Notes under the pieces: generated by a model | Database searches by the model: none | What the model was told of the DNA's origin: nothing | Seen by the model: only the letters and a program-made list of their open reading frames with translations | Shown here: positions 374-52,648 of the stretch, in pieces | How positions within the stretch are numbered: position 1 is the first letter of the stretch | Layout: the number at the start of each line of letters is the position of its first letter | Program-made: the position numbers and the translations under genes | Virus record (IMG/VR): IMGVR_UViG_3300042356_001602 | Length of the DNA: 64,000 bases | Direction: 5' to 3' (one strand) | Source: a virus | Lineage: Duplodnaviria > Caudoviricetes

Positions 374-450
374 TACGGGCGACGGGAATTGAACCCGCGT
401 GCCACCAACTACCCTTTCTACACTTTATAAGAGTGAGGGGATACGCCCGT
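374..450 (-). tRNA. non-canonical tRNA-like RNA, anticodon-like loop CU-UAU-AA (Ile/AUA)
   Basis: Perfect 7-bp acceptor ACGGGCG/CGCCCGT; T-arm GCGGG-TTCAATT-CCCGT; CACT-CTTATAA-AGTG arm; D-loop-like AGTTGGT lies 3' of the anticodon arm; no encoded CCA. Confidence 0.7.
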
Positions 451-1783: not shown

Positions 1784-2044
1784 TTAATAATCCTTTTCTT
1801 GTTCGCCAAAGACTTGATTCCAACATGCTGGGTGAGTTCCAGAAATCATCCATTCTCTAGTCTCTTTATCAAGCTGTGGAAATACGTCTTGAACATAAAG
1901 CCCACGAACTTTCCATTTGTTATATTGTTCTTTAGTCATTAAAAAGAATGTTTCACCTTCACAATGAATGCATACTGTATGAACATTTTCAGGACAATAA
2001 GAGTTTTCATCTTCTGCAACACGATAATAAATAACGTTAGTCAT
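1784..2044 (-). CDS. hypothetical protein, putative Zn-binding
   Basis: MTNVIYYR start overlaps the upstream stop; CxxC plus ISGTHPACW. Confidence 0.65.
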   Translation of the reverse strand: MTNVIYYRVAEDENSYCPENVHTVCIHCEGETFFLMTKEQYNKWKVRGLYVQDVFPQLDKETREWMISGTHPACWNQVFGEQEKDY

Positions 2045-2198
2045 AGGTTTCCTGTTCAGGGTAATACCAATTGTTGGTAGAAGTAGGAGCAATTTTAGAA
2101 GCAACATAAAAAATAAATATTGCAAAGAATTGCATGAAAAGAGATTCAGTTAATACTATATAGAATAACCAAATATACATAAAAATAGTTTTAAACAT
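2037..2198 (-). CDS. small membrane protein (53 aa)
   Basis: Manual translation MFKTIFMYIWLFYIVL...EQETYD; the ATG coincides with position 76 of the upstream tRNA. Confidence 0.6.
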   Translation of the reverse strand: MFKTIFMYIWLFYIVLTESLFMQFFAIFIFYVASKIAPTSTNNWYYPEQETYD

Positions 2199-2200
2199 AG

Positions 2201-2274
2201 TGGGCCCTCTGGGGCTCGAACCCAGGACACACGGATTATGAGTCCGATGCTCTAACCGACTGAGCTAAAGGCCC
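2201..2274 (-). tRNA. tRNA anticodon CAT (Ile2 or elongator Met)
   Basis: Full cloverleaf GGGCCTT...CTCATAA...TTCGAGC...AGGGCCC-A; no encoded CCA. Confidence 0.92.
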
Positions 2275-2435
2275 GTAAGACAGTTGTGAATGCTTAAATG
2301 GAAGGATAAGCATATTGGTATCACTTTGTGGACGGGCCAGTTGTAAACAAGTGGTGATCCGTAGCAATGGGGACTGTAAGCTCCCATAGATTAAAATGAT
2401 TGCATGTCACTGCATAACATTAATCAAATAAAATA

Positions 2436-2636
2436 TTAAAGCTTTCCAGCTCCTGGAATATACATATTGATCTTAGCGGATTCAAACATAACTGAAGGTT
2501 GATCATCTCTATCGTATTCAGCGCCAATTGACAATAGCTCAGTTAGCTCTTCTTTTAGTAGAGTAACTGCTAGGATGTCATCTTGAAATTCGCCAGGAAT
2601 ATCGGCATGGATTTCAACAATTAATTTAACTTTCAT
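2436..2636 (-). CDS. hypothetical protein
   Basis: ORF track; co-oriented and tightly packed. Confidence 0.6.
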   Translation of the reverse strand: MKVKLIVEIHADIPGEFQDDILAVTLLKEELTELLSIGAEYDRDDQPSVMFESAKINMYIPGAGKL

Positions 2637-2790
2637 GAGTTGGTGTAGCCTCTTCTGTAAGTAGTAAGTATAGACGAATGTCTAATAGCAGGTCTGTCAT
2701 TTCAGATGACGAGACAAGCTGTTGACCAGAAATGTCTCCAATAGCTTTATCAACCATTTGGATAGCATTGTTTTTTGGATTAATAGTCAT
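2626..2790 (-). CDS. hypothetical protein (54 aa)
   Basis: Manual translation MTINPKNNAIQMVDKAIG...; overlaps both neighbours. Confidence 0.6.
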   Translation of the reverse strand: MTINPKNNAIQMVDKAIGDISGQQLVSSSEMTDLLLDIRLYLLLTEEATPTHES

Positions 2791-3068
2791 TACGCTTCCC
2801 CTCCACGTTTTTTATATATAGTAACTGCTTTTTCTAAGGTGGTGCAGTAATCACCATTCGATGCTTCAAAGCCTTGAGGTATAGCCACAACGCTCCATAC
2901 TACGTATGGATGAAGCTCGTTCTCTTTATGACAAATAGTTATCCAATGAGCATAACTATCGTCAGGAATCCTATCAGCTTTTTTAGTAGCTGTTATAACC
3001 GTCCTATTGGTGGTGCCTACAACATCGCCAATATGAAGTTCGTTTAGTAAATTTAATTCATTTGTCAT
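2790..3068 (-). CDS. hypothetical protein
   Basis: Start moved to ATG 3068, directly after tRNA-Lys; the track start lies inside the tRNA. Confidence 0.7.
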   Translation of the reverse strand: MTNELNLLNELHIGDVVGTTNRTVITATKKADRIPDDSYAHWITICHKENELHPYVVWSVVAIPQGFEASNGDYCTTLEKAVTIYKKRGGEA

Positions 3069-3070
3069 AG

Positions 3071-3143
3071 TACGCCCTCCGGGGCTCGAACCCGGGACAC
3101 ACGGATTAAAAGTCCGATGCTCTACCAACTGAGCTAAAGGCGC
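3071..3143 (-). tRNA. tRNA-Lys(TTT)
   Basis: Full cloverleaf GCGCCTT...CTTTTAA...AGGGCGT-A. Confidence 0.93.
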
Positions 3144-3153
3144 GTGATGTCAT

Positions 3154-3366
3154 CTATGGATAGATGTCATCAATGGTAGTGGGTTCAACTATGTCTAGTG
3201 TTTGTAAAACTTGTTTAAGCTTTTTACTTTTTTTAATTTTATAACCAGCTGCATTAAGATCTTGAATAATTTTTTCTGGAATACCATGCCAGATTACAAT
3301 ACCAGAAGCAGTTAAAGAATGAGCAATAATATCAAGCTTATGTTTTTTGTGAAGTTTAAATATCAT
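3154..3366 (-). CDS. hypothetical protein
   Basis: ORF track. Confidence 0.6.
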   Translation of the reverse strand: MIFKLHKKHKLDIIAHSLTASGIVIWHGIPEKIIQDLNAAGYKIKKSKKLKQVLQTLDIVEPTTIDDIYP

Positions 3367-3400
3367 TAATTAATCCTTATGTCTATATGTATAATAACAA

Positions 3401-3601
3401 TTATACAACGCGAACGTTGATTGCTTCAGGACCTTTACGTCCTTCGCCAATATCGAATTGAACACTTTGACCTGTAGTCAATGCAGGCTGGGCAGCTTGT
3501 TCAACATTAGAAGTATGAACAAAGATGTCTCCATCTGTGTCTGTAGAAATAAAGCCAAAGCCTTTTTCTTCATTGAAAAATTTTACAATACCTGTAGGCA
3601 T
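3401..3601 (-). CDS. cspA: cold-shock domain protein
   Basis: GIVKFFNEEKGFGFI (RNP1) and DIFVHTS (RNP2). Confidence 0.95.
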   Translation of the reverse strand: MPTGIVKFFNEEKGFGFISTDTDGDIFVHTSNVEQAAQPALTTGQSVQFDIGEGRKGPEAINVRVV

Positions 3602-3851
3602 TAGTACTCGTTTCTATTATATTTTTTGTTTAATGGATTCCATAATAAATTATGGTTTCCATAGTTTTTCTACTATAAAAGTTAAAACACCTGCAATAAC
3701 TAATATGATTAGTATATCTTTCATTCGTAATAACCTTGATTTCTAGTAGAGATTCCATAAGGAGTTTGATGGATTTTGTTATAGGATTTATAACGTTGTC
3801 TAGCTGTACGCTTAAACCTAATCCTATTAATTAAATGTTGAATAGAGTAAA

Positions 3852-4139
3852 TCATATTCCATCCTTATTGATAATTCTTTTAGGTTTTCTTTTGGCATTG
3901 CCATAAGGAAAATAACCTAGTTTTACACGTTGTTCTTCTGTTTCGCCACCCCATATGCCGTACTCAAGGTTGTCACGAGCATAAGCTCTGCACTGAGTGG
4001 CTACTGGGCATTGAGAACAAATGGTCAAAGCTTTTGCTTCTCGTTTAACTCTAGCTTGAGGGCGTTCGTTATAAAGCGGAAAGAATAAATCAGTTTGATT
4101 TTTACATGCCGCTGCATCGAACCATGAAGGGTGATACAT
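3852..4139 (-). CDS. whiB: WhiB-family transcription factor
   Basis: Four Cys (C..LFFP...CSQCPVATQC) and GIWGGETEEQR. Confidence 0.93.
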   Translation of the reverse strand: MYHPSWFDAAACKNQTDLFFPLYNERPQARVKREAKALTICSQCPVATQCRAYARDNLEYGIWGGETEEQRVKLGYFPYGNAKRKPKRIINKDGI

Positions 4140-4182
4140 TTAAATCCTTAAAAGGTACTAATTTGATATAAAGGTCACTTAA

Positions 4183-4473
4183 TTAAAGAGGCCAGTGTTT
4201 TGAATCTGCCTTAGGATCTAATGCAGGTATTATATTGCATGATAGATTATGCTTTTCTTGAGTTGAATCAACCCAAGCTTTTGCTTGTTCTAAGGTAGCG
4301 AATGGACCCCATGATACAACATGGGTGTATCCATGATACTGGGCAAAGTAAGTATACTTAGGTAGATCATCTTGTTGCAAAACAGAATTATACCATTCCA
4401 TTTTTGACATATTAACATCTATATCTTCTAGAATAGATATAGTTTTAAGTGCGTTTCTAATTTTTTTAAACAT
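4183..4473 (-). CDS. hypothetical protein
   Basis: ORF track. Confidence 0.65.
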   Translation of the reverse strand: MFKKIRNALKTISILEDIDVNMSKMEWYNSVLQQDDLPKYTYFAQYHGYTHVVSWGPFATLEQAKAWVDSTQEKHNLSCNIIPALDPKADSKHWPL

Positions 4474-4476
4474 GGG

Positions 4477-4761
4477 TTAATCCTGACCAAAGTTAACGTG
4501 TACAACATTGTTTACGTCATTAGTTTTAGGGGTGTACAAGAGTACTTTAGCCAAAGCTTGAGAATAACCCTTAAATGCTGGATGATCATCTGGAATTTCA
4601 TCTCCGTACTCTGCACGATGAATGTAAAGAACACGTCCATCTTCAAAGTGGAAATCTAAACGATATCCAGAATCAGAAGTAAAAGCTTCCAAAGCATCTT
4701 CGATATTTAAATGATCAGCAGTTAAGCCATCATTTGAACGAGTTGAGTAAGTAATAAACAT
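4477..4761 (-). CDS. hypothetical protein
   Basis: Start moved to ATG 4761 (TAATG coupling with the upstream gene). Confidence 0.65.
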   Translation of the reverse strand: MFITYSTRSNDGLTADHLNIEDALEAFTSDSGYRLDFHFEDGRVLYIHRAEYGDEIPDDHPAFKGYSQALAKVLLYTPKTNDVNNVVHVNFGQD

Positions 4762-4964
4762 TATAGATACTTCCATTTATCAATTGCAGGGATGAGGCCT
4801 AAAATAGAACCATCATCCCATTTTGCAAATACAGTTCCGTTAGAATCTACCGCAGTTACTGTTCCCTGAGAGCCAGGGACAAGATTAGTGTATCTGTCGG
4901 TGCAAGTAATTATTTCTATACGTCTACCTAATAGGTGAGACATGTCATATTTGGATTTTGTCAT
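4761..4964 (-). CDS. DUF4314-like SH3-barrel protein
   Basis: G.RIE.....D.Y..LVPG..GTV..VD..GT.FAKWDDGS.LGLIP..D; start at ATG 4964 directly after tRNA-Asn. Confidence 0.75.
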   Translation of the reverse strand: MTKSKYDMSHLLGRRIEIITCTDRYTNLVPGSQGTVTAVDSNGTVFAKWDDGSILGLIPAIDKWKYL

Positions 4965-4966
4965 AG

Positions 4967-5039
4967 CTCCCAGAGTAGGGCTCGAACCTACGACCAACGG
5001 ATTAACAGTCCGTAGCTCTGCCAACTGAGCTATCTGGGA
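4967..5039 (-). tRNA. tRNA-Asn(GTT)
   Basis: Full cloverleaf TCCCAGA...CTGTTAA...TCTGGGA-G. Confidence 0.93.
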
Positions 5040-5328: not shown

Positions 5329-5631
5329 TTACCAACCGCAACGTGAAAATATAATTGCAGTTGATAATACATATATGAGCAAAAGTGTTTCATATCTATA
5401 GCGAGAATACACTCTTGCAGAACGTATGCCCTTGCGATAAAGAGCATCTTGTTTTCTGGCTAGATTATATTCATCTACACGATATGGATAAGTGAAGAAG
5501 TGATGATCTTCAATTGTCTTGTGATGTTTAATACCGTAATCAAATCCATCAGTAAATGGTCTGATTTTTGGAATTAAATTGTTAATAAACTTTTTCATAA
5601 GTATGTTTATTTCCTTAAAATAATTTGTCAT
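5329..5631 (-). CDS. hypothetical protein with C-terminal TM segment
   Basis: ORF track; hydrophobic C-terminus. Confidence 0.6.
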   Translation of the reverse strand: MTNYFKEINILMKKFINNLIPKIRPFTDGFDYGIKHHKTIEDHHFFTYPYRVDEYNLARKQDALYRKGIRSARVYSRYRYETLLLIYVLSTAIIFSRCGW

Positions 5632-5649
5632 GCTTATTACAGCAGACAG

Positions 5650-5733
5650 TACCCGAGACCGGACTTGAACCGGTAAGAGGTTGCCCTCCGGGGGGTTTAA
5701 GCCCCCTGCGTCTGCCTATTCCGCCACTCGGGT
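5650..5733 (-). tRNA. tRNA-Leu(TAA)
   Basis: ACCCGAG acceptor, GGCGGAATAGGCAGACGC D-arm, CTTAAAC loop, long variable arm. Confidence 0.93.
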
Positions 5734-35312: not shown

Positions 35313-36279
35313 CTTTGATCTTGTTTTTTATCTCATTAAACAGTTCTGTATTGTCACGCAAGTTTGTTATTGCGTTTTCTCTACCTTGTGCAAAAAGTTC
35401 ACCTTCTTGATAAATCCACGCACCTTTTTGCGTAAAGATTCCTTGGTCCACTGCCACATCAAAAACACATCCATGTTCGTCTATTCCTTTTCCGTAAAAT
35501 ATATTAAATTCTGTTATCTTCATAGGGGGTGCCATCTTATTCTTGATGATCTTAACCTTAGAAGTAATTCCAATTGGGTTTCCAGACTTATCCTTGATAT
35601 CTTCCTTCTTGCGAATGTCGATACGCACAGATGCTGCATACTTCAATGCCATACCACCTGGAGTGGTCTCTGGGTTGCCGAACATTATACCAATCTTACT
35701 TCTTAATTGGTTAATGAATATAATAAGAGTTTTGTGCTCATTAGCTAATCCAACAAGCTTACGCAATGCTTTCGACATCATGCGTGCCTGCAAGCCCATC
35801 TGGTTTGCCTCCATATCGCCCTCAAGCTCTGCCTTAGGGATCAAAGAAGCAACTGAGTCTACTACTACCAGACCAATCTCTCCGGTCCTAATAAGCTTGT
35901 CTACGATCTCTAAACCTTGCTCGCCGTAATCGGGCTGAGCTAAAAGTAATTCATCTAGGTCTACACCAACGGCTTGCATGTAAATTGGATCAAGAGCATG
36001 CTCTGCATCTACATATGCACAACGAATGCCAAGCTTTTGTGCTTGTGCAACCACTGACAAAGCAAGTGTTGATTTACCAGAAGACTCTGGTCCAAATATT
36101 TCTACTACTCTACCTTTTGGTAGACCACCAATTCCTAATACCTTATCAAGAGATAAAGCACCTGTTGGGATTGCGGGCCATTTTTCAAAGTGGGAAGAAC
36201 CTAATCTCATTACAGATCCGGTACCAAATTGTCTTTCGATTTGAGCTATGGCTAACTCAAGTTGTTTTGATTCATCCAT
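35293..36279 (-). CDS. recA: RecA recombinase
   Basis: GPESSGKST, VVVDSVASL, IFINQLR, KNKMAPP. Confidence 0.97.
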   Translation of the reverse strand: MDESKQLELAIAQIERQFGTGSVMRLGSSHFEKWPAIPTGALSLDKVLGIGGLPKGRVVEIFGPESSGKSTLALSVVAQAQKLGIRCAYVDAEHALDPIYMQAVGVDLDELLLAQPDYGEQGLEIVDKLIRTGEIGLVVVDSVASLIPKAELEGDMEANQMGLQARMMSKALRKLVGLANEHKTLIIFINQLRSKIGIMFGNPETTPGGMALKYAASVRIDIRKKEDIKDKSGNPIGITSKVKIIKNKMAPPMKITEFNIFYGKGIDEHGCVFDVAVDQGIFTQKGAWIYQEGELFAQGRENAITNLRDNTELFNEIKNKIKDAAKQI

Positions 36280-36493
36280 GTATACATTCTACCACAGGCA
36301 TAGCTTCATCAGTAGGTTTGCACTCGATAGCTTTTATCTTATCTATAACCTTTTGCTTAGCTTCTTTTAATTGCCATCTCAACTCGTAATCTGCAGCAAG
36401 TGTTTTTTCGTTGATTTGATCTAACAACCTATATAATTTTTGTAGTTCCAATTGTTTGGGGTTCTTTTTTTGCAAGGGGAGAACGTCTTTCAT
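36272..36493 (-). CDS. hypothetical protein
   Basis: Start moved to MKDVLP; weak support. Confidence 0.45.
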   Translation of the reverse strand: MKDVLPLQKKNPKQLELQKLYRLLDQINEKTLAADYELRWQLKEAKQKVIDKIKAIECKPTDEAMPVVECIHG

Positions 36494-50600: not shown

Positions 50601-52454
50601 CAATTATTAAAAAAACAATTACACGGACTTAAGCCAGACGCTAACTATCTATTTGCTCTTAAGCCTAAGAATACTGAGATAGTAGCTGTAGATGATTTAC
50701 CAGAAACTATACGAGTAAAAACTCCAGCAGTTTTGTCCGTACCATCAACCATAACTGGTTTTGGAGTTGCGGCAAATTTTGAAACAGTAATGTTTTATTT
50801 TAATCCAGTTAATGACATTGACCTAGATTCATATGCATATCAGCTATATGACGACCCTGCAGGAACGGGAACTCCAGTAGCAACTGGTAAAAACAAAGCT
50901 AACGTATTTACAATCTCAGTAACTAACTCTACTGATTCTACTCCTAAAACATATTATGGAAGAGTTGCAGTAGTTAATAGTGCTGGAACAGTGGGCGCAT
51001 ATACCAGTCTGGTTTCTTCTGGTGCAACTCCATTAATTGGGGAACAATATATTTCTAGCTTAACTGCAGCAAAAATTACTGCAGGAACAATAGGTGCACA
51101 CACAATAACTTTAGGTGGAGTAACCTCTGTTATTAAATCTTCTACATATAATGGATCTTTTGATGGAACTCAATGGACAACCGGAAGTGCTGGGTGGTTG
51201 ATATCTGGTTCTGGTCAAGCTATTTTTGATTCATCTCAAATAAGAGGTTCAATAGCAGCGGCATCAATAAACTTAAACGCGCATAACTATTGGCTTCCAA
51301 ATGCAGGAACGCCAATTTTTAAAGTTGGCAATGCAACTAATTTTTTTGAATGGGATGGAACCAACGTAAAGACTACTGGAACGGTAATTACCAACGCTAC
51401 AGTTTCTGGTGGAACAGTTGGAGGAGTTAACGCAGGCACAAATAAAATATTTTTAGGAACTGGAACATACGCAAACGCAGATACTCCTTTTTATGTAGAC
51501 ACATCTAGTAGATTTTCTTTAGGGGATAAGTTAGCTTTTGATGGGACTAATCTTTCTATTGCTGGAAACGTAACTATAGGTTCTCAGACAGCAACCGCAA
51601 TAAGTGGAGCAGTAACTACAGCAAACGACGCAGCAACAGCAGCAGCAGCAGCGCAAGTTACAGCAGATGGCAAAATAAATGGAGCAGCAGTTAATGCAAA
51701 CGTAACTTCAATATCTGGAGGCGTAATTACAACTGGAGCAATACAATCCAATAATTTTAATTGGAATGGCACCGATACATATTCAACTGCAGGTACTGGA
51801 ATTTATTTATCTAACGGACAAATCATTTCTAAAAATTTTAAAATAGATGGATCTGGAAACGCTTCGTTTCGAGGAACTATAACTGCGGCAGCAGGAACAA
51901 TTGGTGGTTATACAATTGGTGAAACATCACTAACGACAACTGCCGGTTCTAGTTCGTTTGGCAAATATTCTAGCGTATCAATAAATTCAAATGGATTAAT
52001 TAATAGCTATTATCAAGATATTACAATTTTTAGTACTCTATATGAAAATGTTAAAATAAATGGTTACGCAGACGGCGGTTCTGGAGCAATAAATATTACA
52101 GGCACGGCGAACGCCGGTAGTTTTTCAGAAAGATGGTATACATCTTATGGGGTACATAACCCATCAGATATTAGATTAAAAAATATAATTGAAGAAGACG
52201 TTAATGCACTAAACCTTATTAATAACGTTCAAACTACAAAATTTGTTTTTAAAAACGATGAAACAGAGCGTCAACATTTTGGATTTATTGCACAGCAAAT
52301 GAATGAACATATCCCCAATGCTGTTATACCCGGAGGAGAAGATCCAACTAAGCAGGCTTGGGGTATTGTGCAAGAAACGCTTATCCCATATCTTGTGAAA
52401 TCAATACAACAATTATCTGCAAAAGTTGAACAACTAGAATCTCGTCTGGTATAA
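50597..52454 (+). CDS. tail fibre/host-specificity protein with FN3-like N-terminus and S74 chaperone; +1 frameshift at CGG 50624-50626
   Basis: MTIIKKTIT-(+1)-GLKPDANY FN3-type strand; C-terminal PSDIRLKN...GFIAQQ. Confidence 0.8.
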
Positions 52455-52456
52455 TC

Positions 52457-52648
52457 TTGTACATGAATGAATCAAATTTAGACATCAACCTTATAGTTCA
52501 ATCTTTTCAAGAAAGAATTGGATTATTGATAACAGAAGTAGTAGTTAAAGAAGCGACAATCAAGCAGCTTACTATGCAGCTTCAGCAAAAGCAAGAACAA
52601 TCAGATGGGTTCGATATGCCCGCAGAAACCGTAAAGAGAGTAAAATAA
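52457..52648 (+). CDS. small coiled-coil protein (tail chaperone-like)
   Basis: ORF track. Confidence 0.65.
   Translation: MYMNESNLDINLIVQSFQERIGLLITEVVVKEATIKQLTMQLQQKQEQSDGFDMPAETVKRVK

Follow-up and report, generated by a model that had tools for sequence, protein, structure and literature searches.

Phage tRNA genes that end on start codons: conservation of the junction and a possible coupling of tRNA maturation to translation

tRNA genes and start codons at the locus

The window analysed in this study comprises 64,000 nucleotides (nt) of a virus of the Caudoviricetes (IMG/VR record IMGVR_UViG_3300042356_001602) and corresponds, as reverse complement, to bases 1943-65942 of a virus contig of 86 kb (86,198 positions per strand). 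On its minus strand, three tRNA genes are each followed directly by an open reading frame (ORF) whose ATG begins on tRNA position 76. The tRNA-Leu gene of the same cluster lacks this arrangement and serves as a contrast. The features are given below with window coordinates, protein lengths being in amino acids (aa).

2201..2274, minus strand: tRNA with anticodon CAT (Met or possibly lysidine-type Ile2); Rfam RF00005, 67.1 bits, and ARAGORN; discriminator A at 2201
2196..2200, minus strand: junction C74-T75-A76-T-G after tRNA-CAT, read from the sequence; the ATG at 2196-2198 starts on position 76
2037..2198, minus strand: ORF of 53 aa for a small hydrophobic, likely membrane protein (ORF list, family alignment)
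3071..3143, minus strand: tRNA-Lys(UUU); Rfam, 66.5 bits; discriminator A at 3071
3066..3070, minus strand: junction C-T-A-T-G after tRNA-Lys, read from the sequence
2790..3068, minus strand: ORF of 92 aa (ORF list), no Pfam family
4967..5039, minus strand: tRNA-Asn(GUU); Rfam, 69.6 bits; discriminator G at 4967
4962..4966, minus strand: junction C-T-A-T-G after tRNA-Asn, read from the sequence
4761..4964, minus strand: ORF of 67 aa for a DUF4314 protein; Pfam PF14192, E 3.4e-15, residues 12-65
5650..5733, minus strand: tRNA-Leu(UAA), ARAGORN; contrast case, ATG absent at position 76

Rfam matched the three tRNAs over their full length as cloverleaves, and ARAGORN agreed on the discriminator bases (N73). 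These ends, together with the sequence as read, bore out to the base the claim of an earlier note on this DNA that the three genes end in N73-C-T-ATG. CCA is not encoded after the discriminator in the three window tRNAs, all of which have CTA. The pentamer CTATG occurs 182 times in the 2 x 86,198 positions of the contig, a density of about 0.001 per site. Finding it in register behind three of five tRNAs has a chance probability of about 1e-8 if the tRNAs are taken as independent, which is not fully the case since the CAT and Lys tRNAs, read side by side, resemble close paralogues. CTATG was also considered as a general gene-start motif of the phage and rejected, CT preceding the ATG in 11 of 223 starts.

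The ATGs at 2198, 3068 and 4964 open credible ORFs of 53, 92 and 67 aa, as had been supposed, and homologues keep the N-termini. In the family of the 53-aa ORF the motifs YI..TES and NWYYP were conserved, and the start was fixed at position 76 despite a variable N-terminal length. Ten relatives kept the N-terminus MTNELN of the 92-aa ORF, their codons for it differing synonymously, and third codon positions accounted for 30/51, 46/88 and 15/24 of the differences in comparisons with relatives. The DUF4314 domain begins at residue 12 of its ORF; several relatives have no other start codon ahead of the domain, and the family alignment revealed N-terminal indels with a start unmoved from position 76. 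That the ORFs are not genes, or start elsewhere, might be argued from their small size (39-97 aa for inserted and junction ORFs across the relatives described below) and from the lack of a Pfam family for two of the three window ORFs. This explanation, to which we give almost no weight, has to contend with the DUF4314 match, with the conserved N-termini and their synonymous changes, and with a bias of the substitutions to the third codon position. Moreover, each of the 47 junction ORFs found in relatives ran for 35 codons or more, while CTATG sites that occur by chance behind other phage tRNAs opened, among the matches listed, mostly a few codons. The earlier note had named a failure of translation from these ATGs as an outcome that its idea could not survive. 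The same N-termini in homologues, the synonymous changes and the lack of an alternative start before DUF4314 mark the junction ORFs instead as coding genes that start at the position-76 ATGs.

Conservation of the junction among relatives

Relatives were gathered by protein, with the 3' halves of tRNA-Lys and tRNA-Asn in a manner blind to the trailer, and from metagenomes. Going by the relatives retrieved, the phage family is one of lake phages of about 200 kb; a blastn search of 50,697 phage records returned the tRNAs as sole matches and no cultured relative. After duplicate removal, 70 non-redundant contexts were obtained with a tRNA at least 80% identical to the window Asn, Lys or CAT tRNA. 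In 47 of these, offset 3, equal to position 76, was the start of an ORF of at least 35 codons, 44 times with CTATG and three times with CCATG. The junction was present after the CAT tRNA in 13 (CTATG or CCATG), after tRNA-Lys in 19 (C-[T/C]-ATG) and after tRNA-Asn in 15 (CTATG) non-redundant relatives, and an Arg tRNA of one relative had CCATG too, opening a 93-codon ORF. A single context had its start at offset 5 and none at offsets 6-13; the remaining contexts with an ORF had starts at an offset of at least 14, mostly behind a Shine-Dalgarno (SD)-like tetramer (AAGG, GGAG, AGGA or GAGG). The register N73-C-[T/C]-ATG, on whose conservation in related phages the earlier note had staked its proposal, is thus shared widely, and all close relatives keep it.

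The ORFs in this register are diverse. Grouped by us according to their N-termini, without formal clustering, they represent at least a dozen unrelated small families. After tRNA-Lys these were the 92-aa ORF, an ORF of about 42 aa ("RKCSALT"), two different 68-aa ORFs and a 97-aa ORF; after tRNA-Asn, DUF4314 proteins with differing N-termini and at least four others; after the CAT tRNA, small hydrophobic, likely membrane proteins and one unrelated 61-aa ORF. Within families the N-termini had gained or lost 3-8 residues, the ATG staying on position 76 throughout. The 5' flanks of the junction tRNAs show free divergence, with gaps of 0 to 77 nt between the upstream stop codon and the tRNA; in the window the gaps are 0 nt on the 3' side and 5-10 nt on the 5' side for Asn and Lys. 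In some relatives an inserted ORF displaces the 92-aa gene from tRNA-Lys. The displaced gene is SD-led in L001, and in L004, L006, L131, L136, L305 and L308 its ATG and the end of the inserted ORF share a few nt (8 nt in L004, ATGACAAATGA), an overlap that suggests translational coupling. The small ORF inserted in L006 is bracketed by a 7-nt CTATGAC repeat. As to an att-type insertion signature, L006 shows solely this repeat; neither acceptor nor T-arm sequence is duplicated.

The runs AGAGGG, GGAGG and GGGAG, which the earlier note had located inside the tRNAs, do lie there, in the 3' strands of the T-stem and the acceptor stem as read from the sequence. From this position they could start translation on the unprocessed precursor, folding or processing of the tRNA then repressing the ORF. 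The distances of GGAGG in tRNA-Lys (7 nt) and AGAGGG in the CAT tRNA (6 nt) from the ATG are good SD spacings and agree with such a role, which we nevertheless judge distinctly unlikely. GGGAG of tRNA-Asn sits 2 nt from the ATG. In relatives that retain the junction, the run of the CAT (Met) tRNA has degenerated into ACAGAG, CTGGG or CCCGG, and it is lost in L001-3, L007, L136 and L146. GGAGG is a trait of tRNA-Lys, present without an abutting ORF or together with a separate SD in L289, L293, L297, L298, L307 and L309. Among predicted minimum-energy folds, the cloverleaf was obtained for the CAT and Asn precursors, not for Lys. Across relatives, no conserved SD 5-10 nt upstream of the ATG was found to co-vary with the junction. 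The related proposal that tRNA folding hides the SD is weak for the same reasons: the runs do not track the junction, the Asn run is just 2 nt from the ATG, and the Met run is lost in several relatives. A co-occurrence of the tRNA-Lys GGAGG with the junction was considered separately and discarded, as metagenome matches show the same tRNA lacking an abutting ORF. In the phage as a whole, an SD-like tetramer was present ahead of 54 of 103 first-ATG ORFs, against a background of 11%. Since most phage starts are SD-enriched and the runs at the junctions are not conserved, the junction ORFs are, as judged from these comparisons, a distinct class that has no usable SD of its own.

The C-T-A tail occurs beyond the junctions. 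It also trails tRNAs of the family that have no abutting ORF, namely tRNA-Ile(UAU), a number of Arg tRNAs and, in the 268-kb record G004, the second tRNA-Lys and tRNA-Asn. In arrays of unrelated phages, among the matches listed, nearly every tRNA ends in N73-CTA (L055, L087) or N73-CAA (L108). Across the junctions C74 is invariant and position 75 is T or C; a minority of relatives carries the full CCA, followed by TG. By its distribution, C-T-A is a "pseudo-CCA" tail on the tRNA side, not an ORF signal, and the ORF-specific feature is the TG directly after A76, nothing more. The loop of RNase P RNA reads CCA. A pyrimidine at position 75 is possibly kept since a G-U wobble with this loop could still form.

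These observations bear on an explanation without any selected coupling, in which the ATG on A76 arose by packing, was spread by cassette exchange and was locked in place by the damage that indels would cause. A tail that belongs to the tRNA and occurs without an ORF, in family members and in whole CTA or CAA arrays of unrelated phages, is in line with it. So are a mutational target of merely 2 nt, the CTATGAC repeat around the inserted ORF in L006 and the compactness of the genome, in which gaps from stop codon to tRNA are often 5-7 nt. Packing alone does not account for the translation of conserved ORFs that have no SD, for the use of one register by about a dozen independent families of ORFs or for the absence of spacings of 6-13 nt. 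Nor does it account for a 5' side that varies by 0-77 nt next to a fixed 3' side, and other nearby intergenic spacers are not minimal. We consider this explanation unlikely, though a serious contender.

A survey by the CTATG pattern is biased by design, so the general preference was determined in a sample selected by a D-arm motif and blind to the trailer, in which 117 IMG/VR loci gave 577 tRNAs. The trailers were CCA in 56%, CAA in 11% and CTA in 5%, the latter two being the commonest non-CCA forms; C74 was retained in most of the sampled phage tRNAs, the middle base of CCA being the one that changed. An ATG at offset 3 was present in 13 of the 577 unselected tRNAs, with no excess over neighbouring offsets. 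ORFs of at least 40 codons started at offset 3 in 3 of 559 unselected tRNAs, and among the 140 tRNAs with such an ORF starting within 60 nt just 3 had it at offset 3. Because the unselected sample shows no preference for a position-76 ATG, the arrangement is a trait of this phage lineage and not a general phage habit. In the CTATG-selected survey, L053, L073 and L108 had, among the matches listed, two such ORF junctions each; these could be independent recurrences.

tRNA maturation as a possible source of mRNA

The phage encodes a WhiB gene (Pfam), and whiB serves as an actinophage marker (PMC10914622). Because of this gene, the one indication used, the host is presumed to be an actinobacterium. 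Naming the host via WhiB was rejected, a single lake metagenome-assembled genome with 55% identity being too weak a match. The contig has a G+C content of 38%. In the codon use of the phage, AGA makes up 49% of the Arg, ATA 30% of the Ile and TTA 26% of the Leu codons, and the tRNA set (UUA, AAY, AAA, AUA or AUG, AGA) fits this A/U-rich codon use; the phage tRNAs are therefore likely made and processed in quantity.

Between genes, 22 promoter-like sites were counted versus 27.2 +/- 6.4 in shuffles, and 1 terminator-like site versus 3.4. Since no promoter fits between tRNA and ATG and promoter- and terminator-like sites are not in excess, it is a reasonable inference that the tRNAs and the small genes are co-transcribed. 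Three functional tRNA genes within a run of small genes would then constitute a tRNA-punctuated operon, each tail reading C74-Y75-A76 and A76 being also the A of the next AUG. The mRNA channel of the ribosome requires roughly a dozen single-stranded nt 5' of the P site. By this geometry, a folded tRNA 2 nt upstream should keep the ribosome from seating the AUG in the P site, and therefore translation would be expected only once the tRNA is removed. The host tRNA 3' endonuclease would cut after N73 or after C74, and the host CCA-adding enzyme would then complete the tRNA. The other product would be a 5'-monophosphate mRNA, whose first bases would be CUAUG if the cut falls after N73 and UAUG if it falls after C74. 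With a leader of 1-2 nt, CU or CC in the former case and one pyrimidine in the latter, it would be translated by the leaderless-type pathway common in Actinomycetota. The first 40 nt 3' of N73 were predicted to be essentially unstructured (-0.1 to -1.5 kcal/mol). No CCA-adding enzyme was found in the phage, and Pfam Lactamase_B_2, the RNase Z-type fold, had no match in five phage records; the processing would therefore be done by host enzymes.

RNase Z, which had been taken as the established cutter, is not established for this host. Of 81 Actinomycetota genomes sampled, about 10, most of them large, gave a full-length match to TIGR02651 (RNase Z; 245-304 bits); the genomes in which it was not found include the unpublished G006, G023, G053 and G073. 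Propionibacterium acnes has no obvious RNase Z homologue, and processing sites were observed near most of its tRNA 3' ends, including C74/C75 cuts in encoded CCA (PMC3848588). A cut at C74/C75 would suit the CTA and CCA forms of the junction alike. The assumption that very short leaders are common in Actinomycetota agrees with the literature: in P. acnes, 50 mRNAs had a leader of 0 nt and 88 one of 10 nt or less (PMC3848588), and in Streptomyces coelicolor 264 mRNAs had a leader under 10 nt (PMC4681348).

The best-fitting reading is that tRNA 3' processing releases near-leaderless mRNAs, with 0-2 nt ahead of the AUG, that are translated by the presumed actinobacterial host, which would couple tRNA maturation to the expression of the small genes. 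We give it a probability of about 0.5. Of the coupling as first proposed, the conserved spacing and starts have held up, the link between processing and translation stays conditional, and the part assigned to RNase Z had to be corrected. More tentative, at slightly below even odds, is a further-reaching form, in which host tRNA 3' maturation would be an obligatory step that creates near-leaderless mRNAs for changing small accessory genes, their output being stoichiometric with the A/U-codon tRNAs of the phage.

Several points weigh against a release of mRNAs by tRNA processing. With its 1-2 nt of leader, the mRNA would not be leaderless in the strict sense; the perfect design would have the ATG directly after N73, and a cut after position 75, as required for a 0-nt leader, is not known. 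Extra 5' nucleotides reduce leaderless translation in E. coli. In the relatives with CCA and then TG, the pathways that classically protect CCA would place their cut within the start codon or past it. Evolution could also have locked the overlap in, any insertion breaking either the tail or the ATG, and the CTATGAC repeat in L006 suggests cassettes that move by microhomology, the register being copied passively. Promoter-derived leaderless starts would show as a peak of -10-like elements at 5-8 nt ahead of the ORFs, and no such peak was found.

The CCA-encoding variants of the junction also speak for a further possibility, namely that the two products exclude each other: a host cut at or after A76, or a few nt downstream, would destroy the start, and the ORFs would be made from uncut transcripts, throttled by the demand for tRNA. 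P. acnes tRNAs with encoded CCA are often cut a few nt downstream (PMC3848588). In the uncut precursor, however, the folded tRNA 2 nt from the AUG should block initiation, judging from ribosome geometry, and the junctions are mostly CTA, not CCA. We hold mutually exclusive products to be highly improbable.

Neighbouring elements and comparison with known systems

Three further features were recorded in the vicinity of the tRNA genes.

2275..2390, minus strand: conserved non-coding element of about 115 nt, directly 5' of tRNA-CAT (RNAalifold)
5636-5644, minus strand: element TGCTGTAAT 3' of tRNA-Leu, resembling an extended -10; relatives L001-L005, L129 and L136 have TGnTATAAT at the same place
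374..450, minus strand: weak tRNA-like match of 32 bits, in which the D-arm region is shortened and a long insertion is present

For the element at 2275-2390, RNAalifold predicted 28 pairs from 9 sequences, 12 of them with compensatory changes, and a search of Rfam gave zero family matches. The element may be an undescribed phage non-coding RNA, whose 3' end would be set by the RNase P cut of tRNA-CAT. In the sequence read, tRNA-Leu is followed by CTGTCTGCTGTAATAAGCATG. The element TGCTGTAAT is separated by 4 nt from the ATG of the ORF at 5329-5631 (site 5629-5649, minus strand), and this ORF could have a promoter-derived leaderless start. Two look-alike sites, at 36268-36294 on the minus strand and at 52447-52474 on the plus strand, consist of TGGTAnAAT, 6-7 nt and ATG[G/A]ATGAATCA and lead in each case into an ORF of 50 codons or more; the two genes are leaderless candidates that would share a promoter-start module. 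The weak match at 374-450 seems by its position to correspond to the tRNA-Ile(UAU) found by ARAGORN in relatives. The Arg(UCU) tRNA sits outside the window and has CAAAGGG directly 3' of it. The window differs at 14 positions from the stored record (G000:C1:1943-65942), of which it is a close variant, not an identical copy. In G004 (IMGVR_UViG_3300042868_009074, 267,766 bases) the Leu-Asn-Lys-Met tRNA set occurs twice, near 9-13 kb and near 222-250 kb, with unlike junction states; two related phages may have been joined in this record, as a chimera or a concatenated assembly.

A phage description of such a tRNA-start design was not found in the literature searched, the coverage of which was incomplete. 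The T4 tRNA region with segB resembles the present cluster in having small accessory ORFs between phage tRNA genes; these are separate genes, and a fusion of start codon and position 76 is not described in the portion of PMC2330249 considered here. With respect to maturation, the window tRNAs share with other CCA-less tRNAs (RNase Z; the C74/C75 endonuclease activity of P. acnes, PMC3848588) the missing CCA and the apparent reliance on a CCA-adding enzyme not found in the phage itself. They differ in a trailer that is kept as C-Y-A and would double as the 5' end of an mRNA.

The leaderless mRNAs of Actinomycetota (PMC3848588, PMC4681348), a class abundant in the presumed host phylum, likewise have no SD and an AUG at or near the 5' end. 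They stem from transcription initiation and carry a 5' triphosphate, whereas the phage mRNAs would be endonucleolytic products with a 5' monophosphate and a fixed leader of 1-2 nt. As far as the account cited in PMC4681348 goes (Vesper et al. 2011), MazF of E. coli was proposed to make leaderless mRNAs by a cut just upstream of the AUG. The likeness lies in an endonuclease cut near the AUG that is proposed to yield a translatable leaderless mRNA. MazF is a stress toxin acting at ACA sites, and its role is debated; the phage cut would be part of constitutive tRNA maturation, with a site set by tRNA structure.

If the maturation cut also makes the mRNA, a bacterial virus would have a way to express genes without a ribosome-binding site, and gene dosage would be tied directly to tRNA output. 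The junctions offer a test bed for the shortest leader that the leaderless pathway tolerates and for the translation of 5'-monophosphate processed ends in Actinomycetota. Gene callers that demand an SD or forbid an overlap with tRNAs will miss or mis-start such genes.

The punctuation of mitochondrial transcripts by tRNAs was reportedly described by Ojala, Montoya and Attardi in 1981. It is reviewed in PMC3790967. Unlike the mitochondrial system, the phage relies on bacterial RNases and ribosomes of its host; three of the five or six tRNAs of the cluster are involved, the other phage genes mostly using SD-like sequences, and the phage cleavage and translation are putative. The likenesses concern the layout. 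tRNAs abut protein genes in a polycistronic unit, which in the phage would follow from the presumed co-transcription. The start codon lies 0-3 nt from the cut and an SD is absent, as in the 47 phage contexts with the ATG 2 nt past N73. In both, excision of the tRNA would define the 5' end of the mRNA, and the junctions, if read correctly, would represent the counterpart of mitochondrial tRNA punctuation in a bacterial virus.

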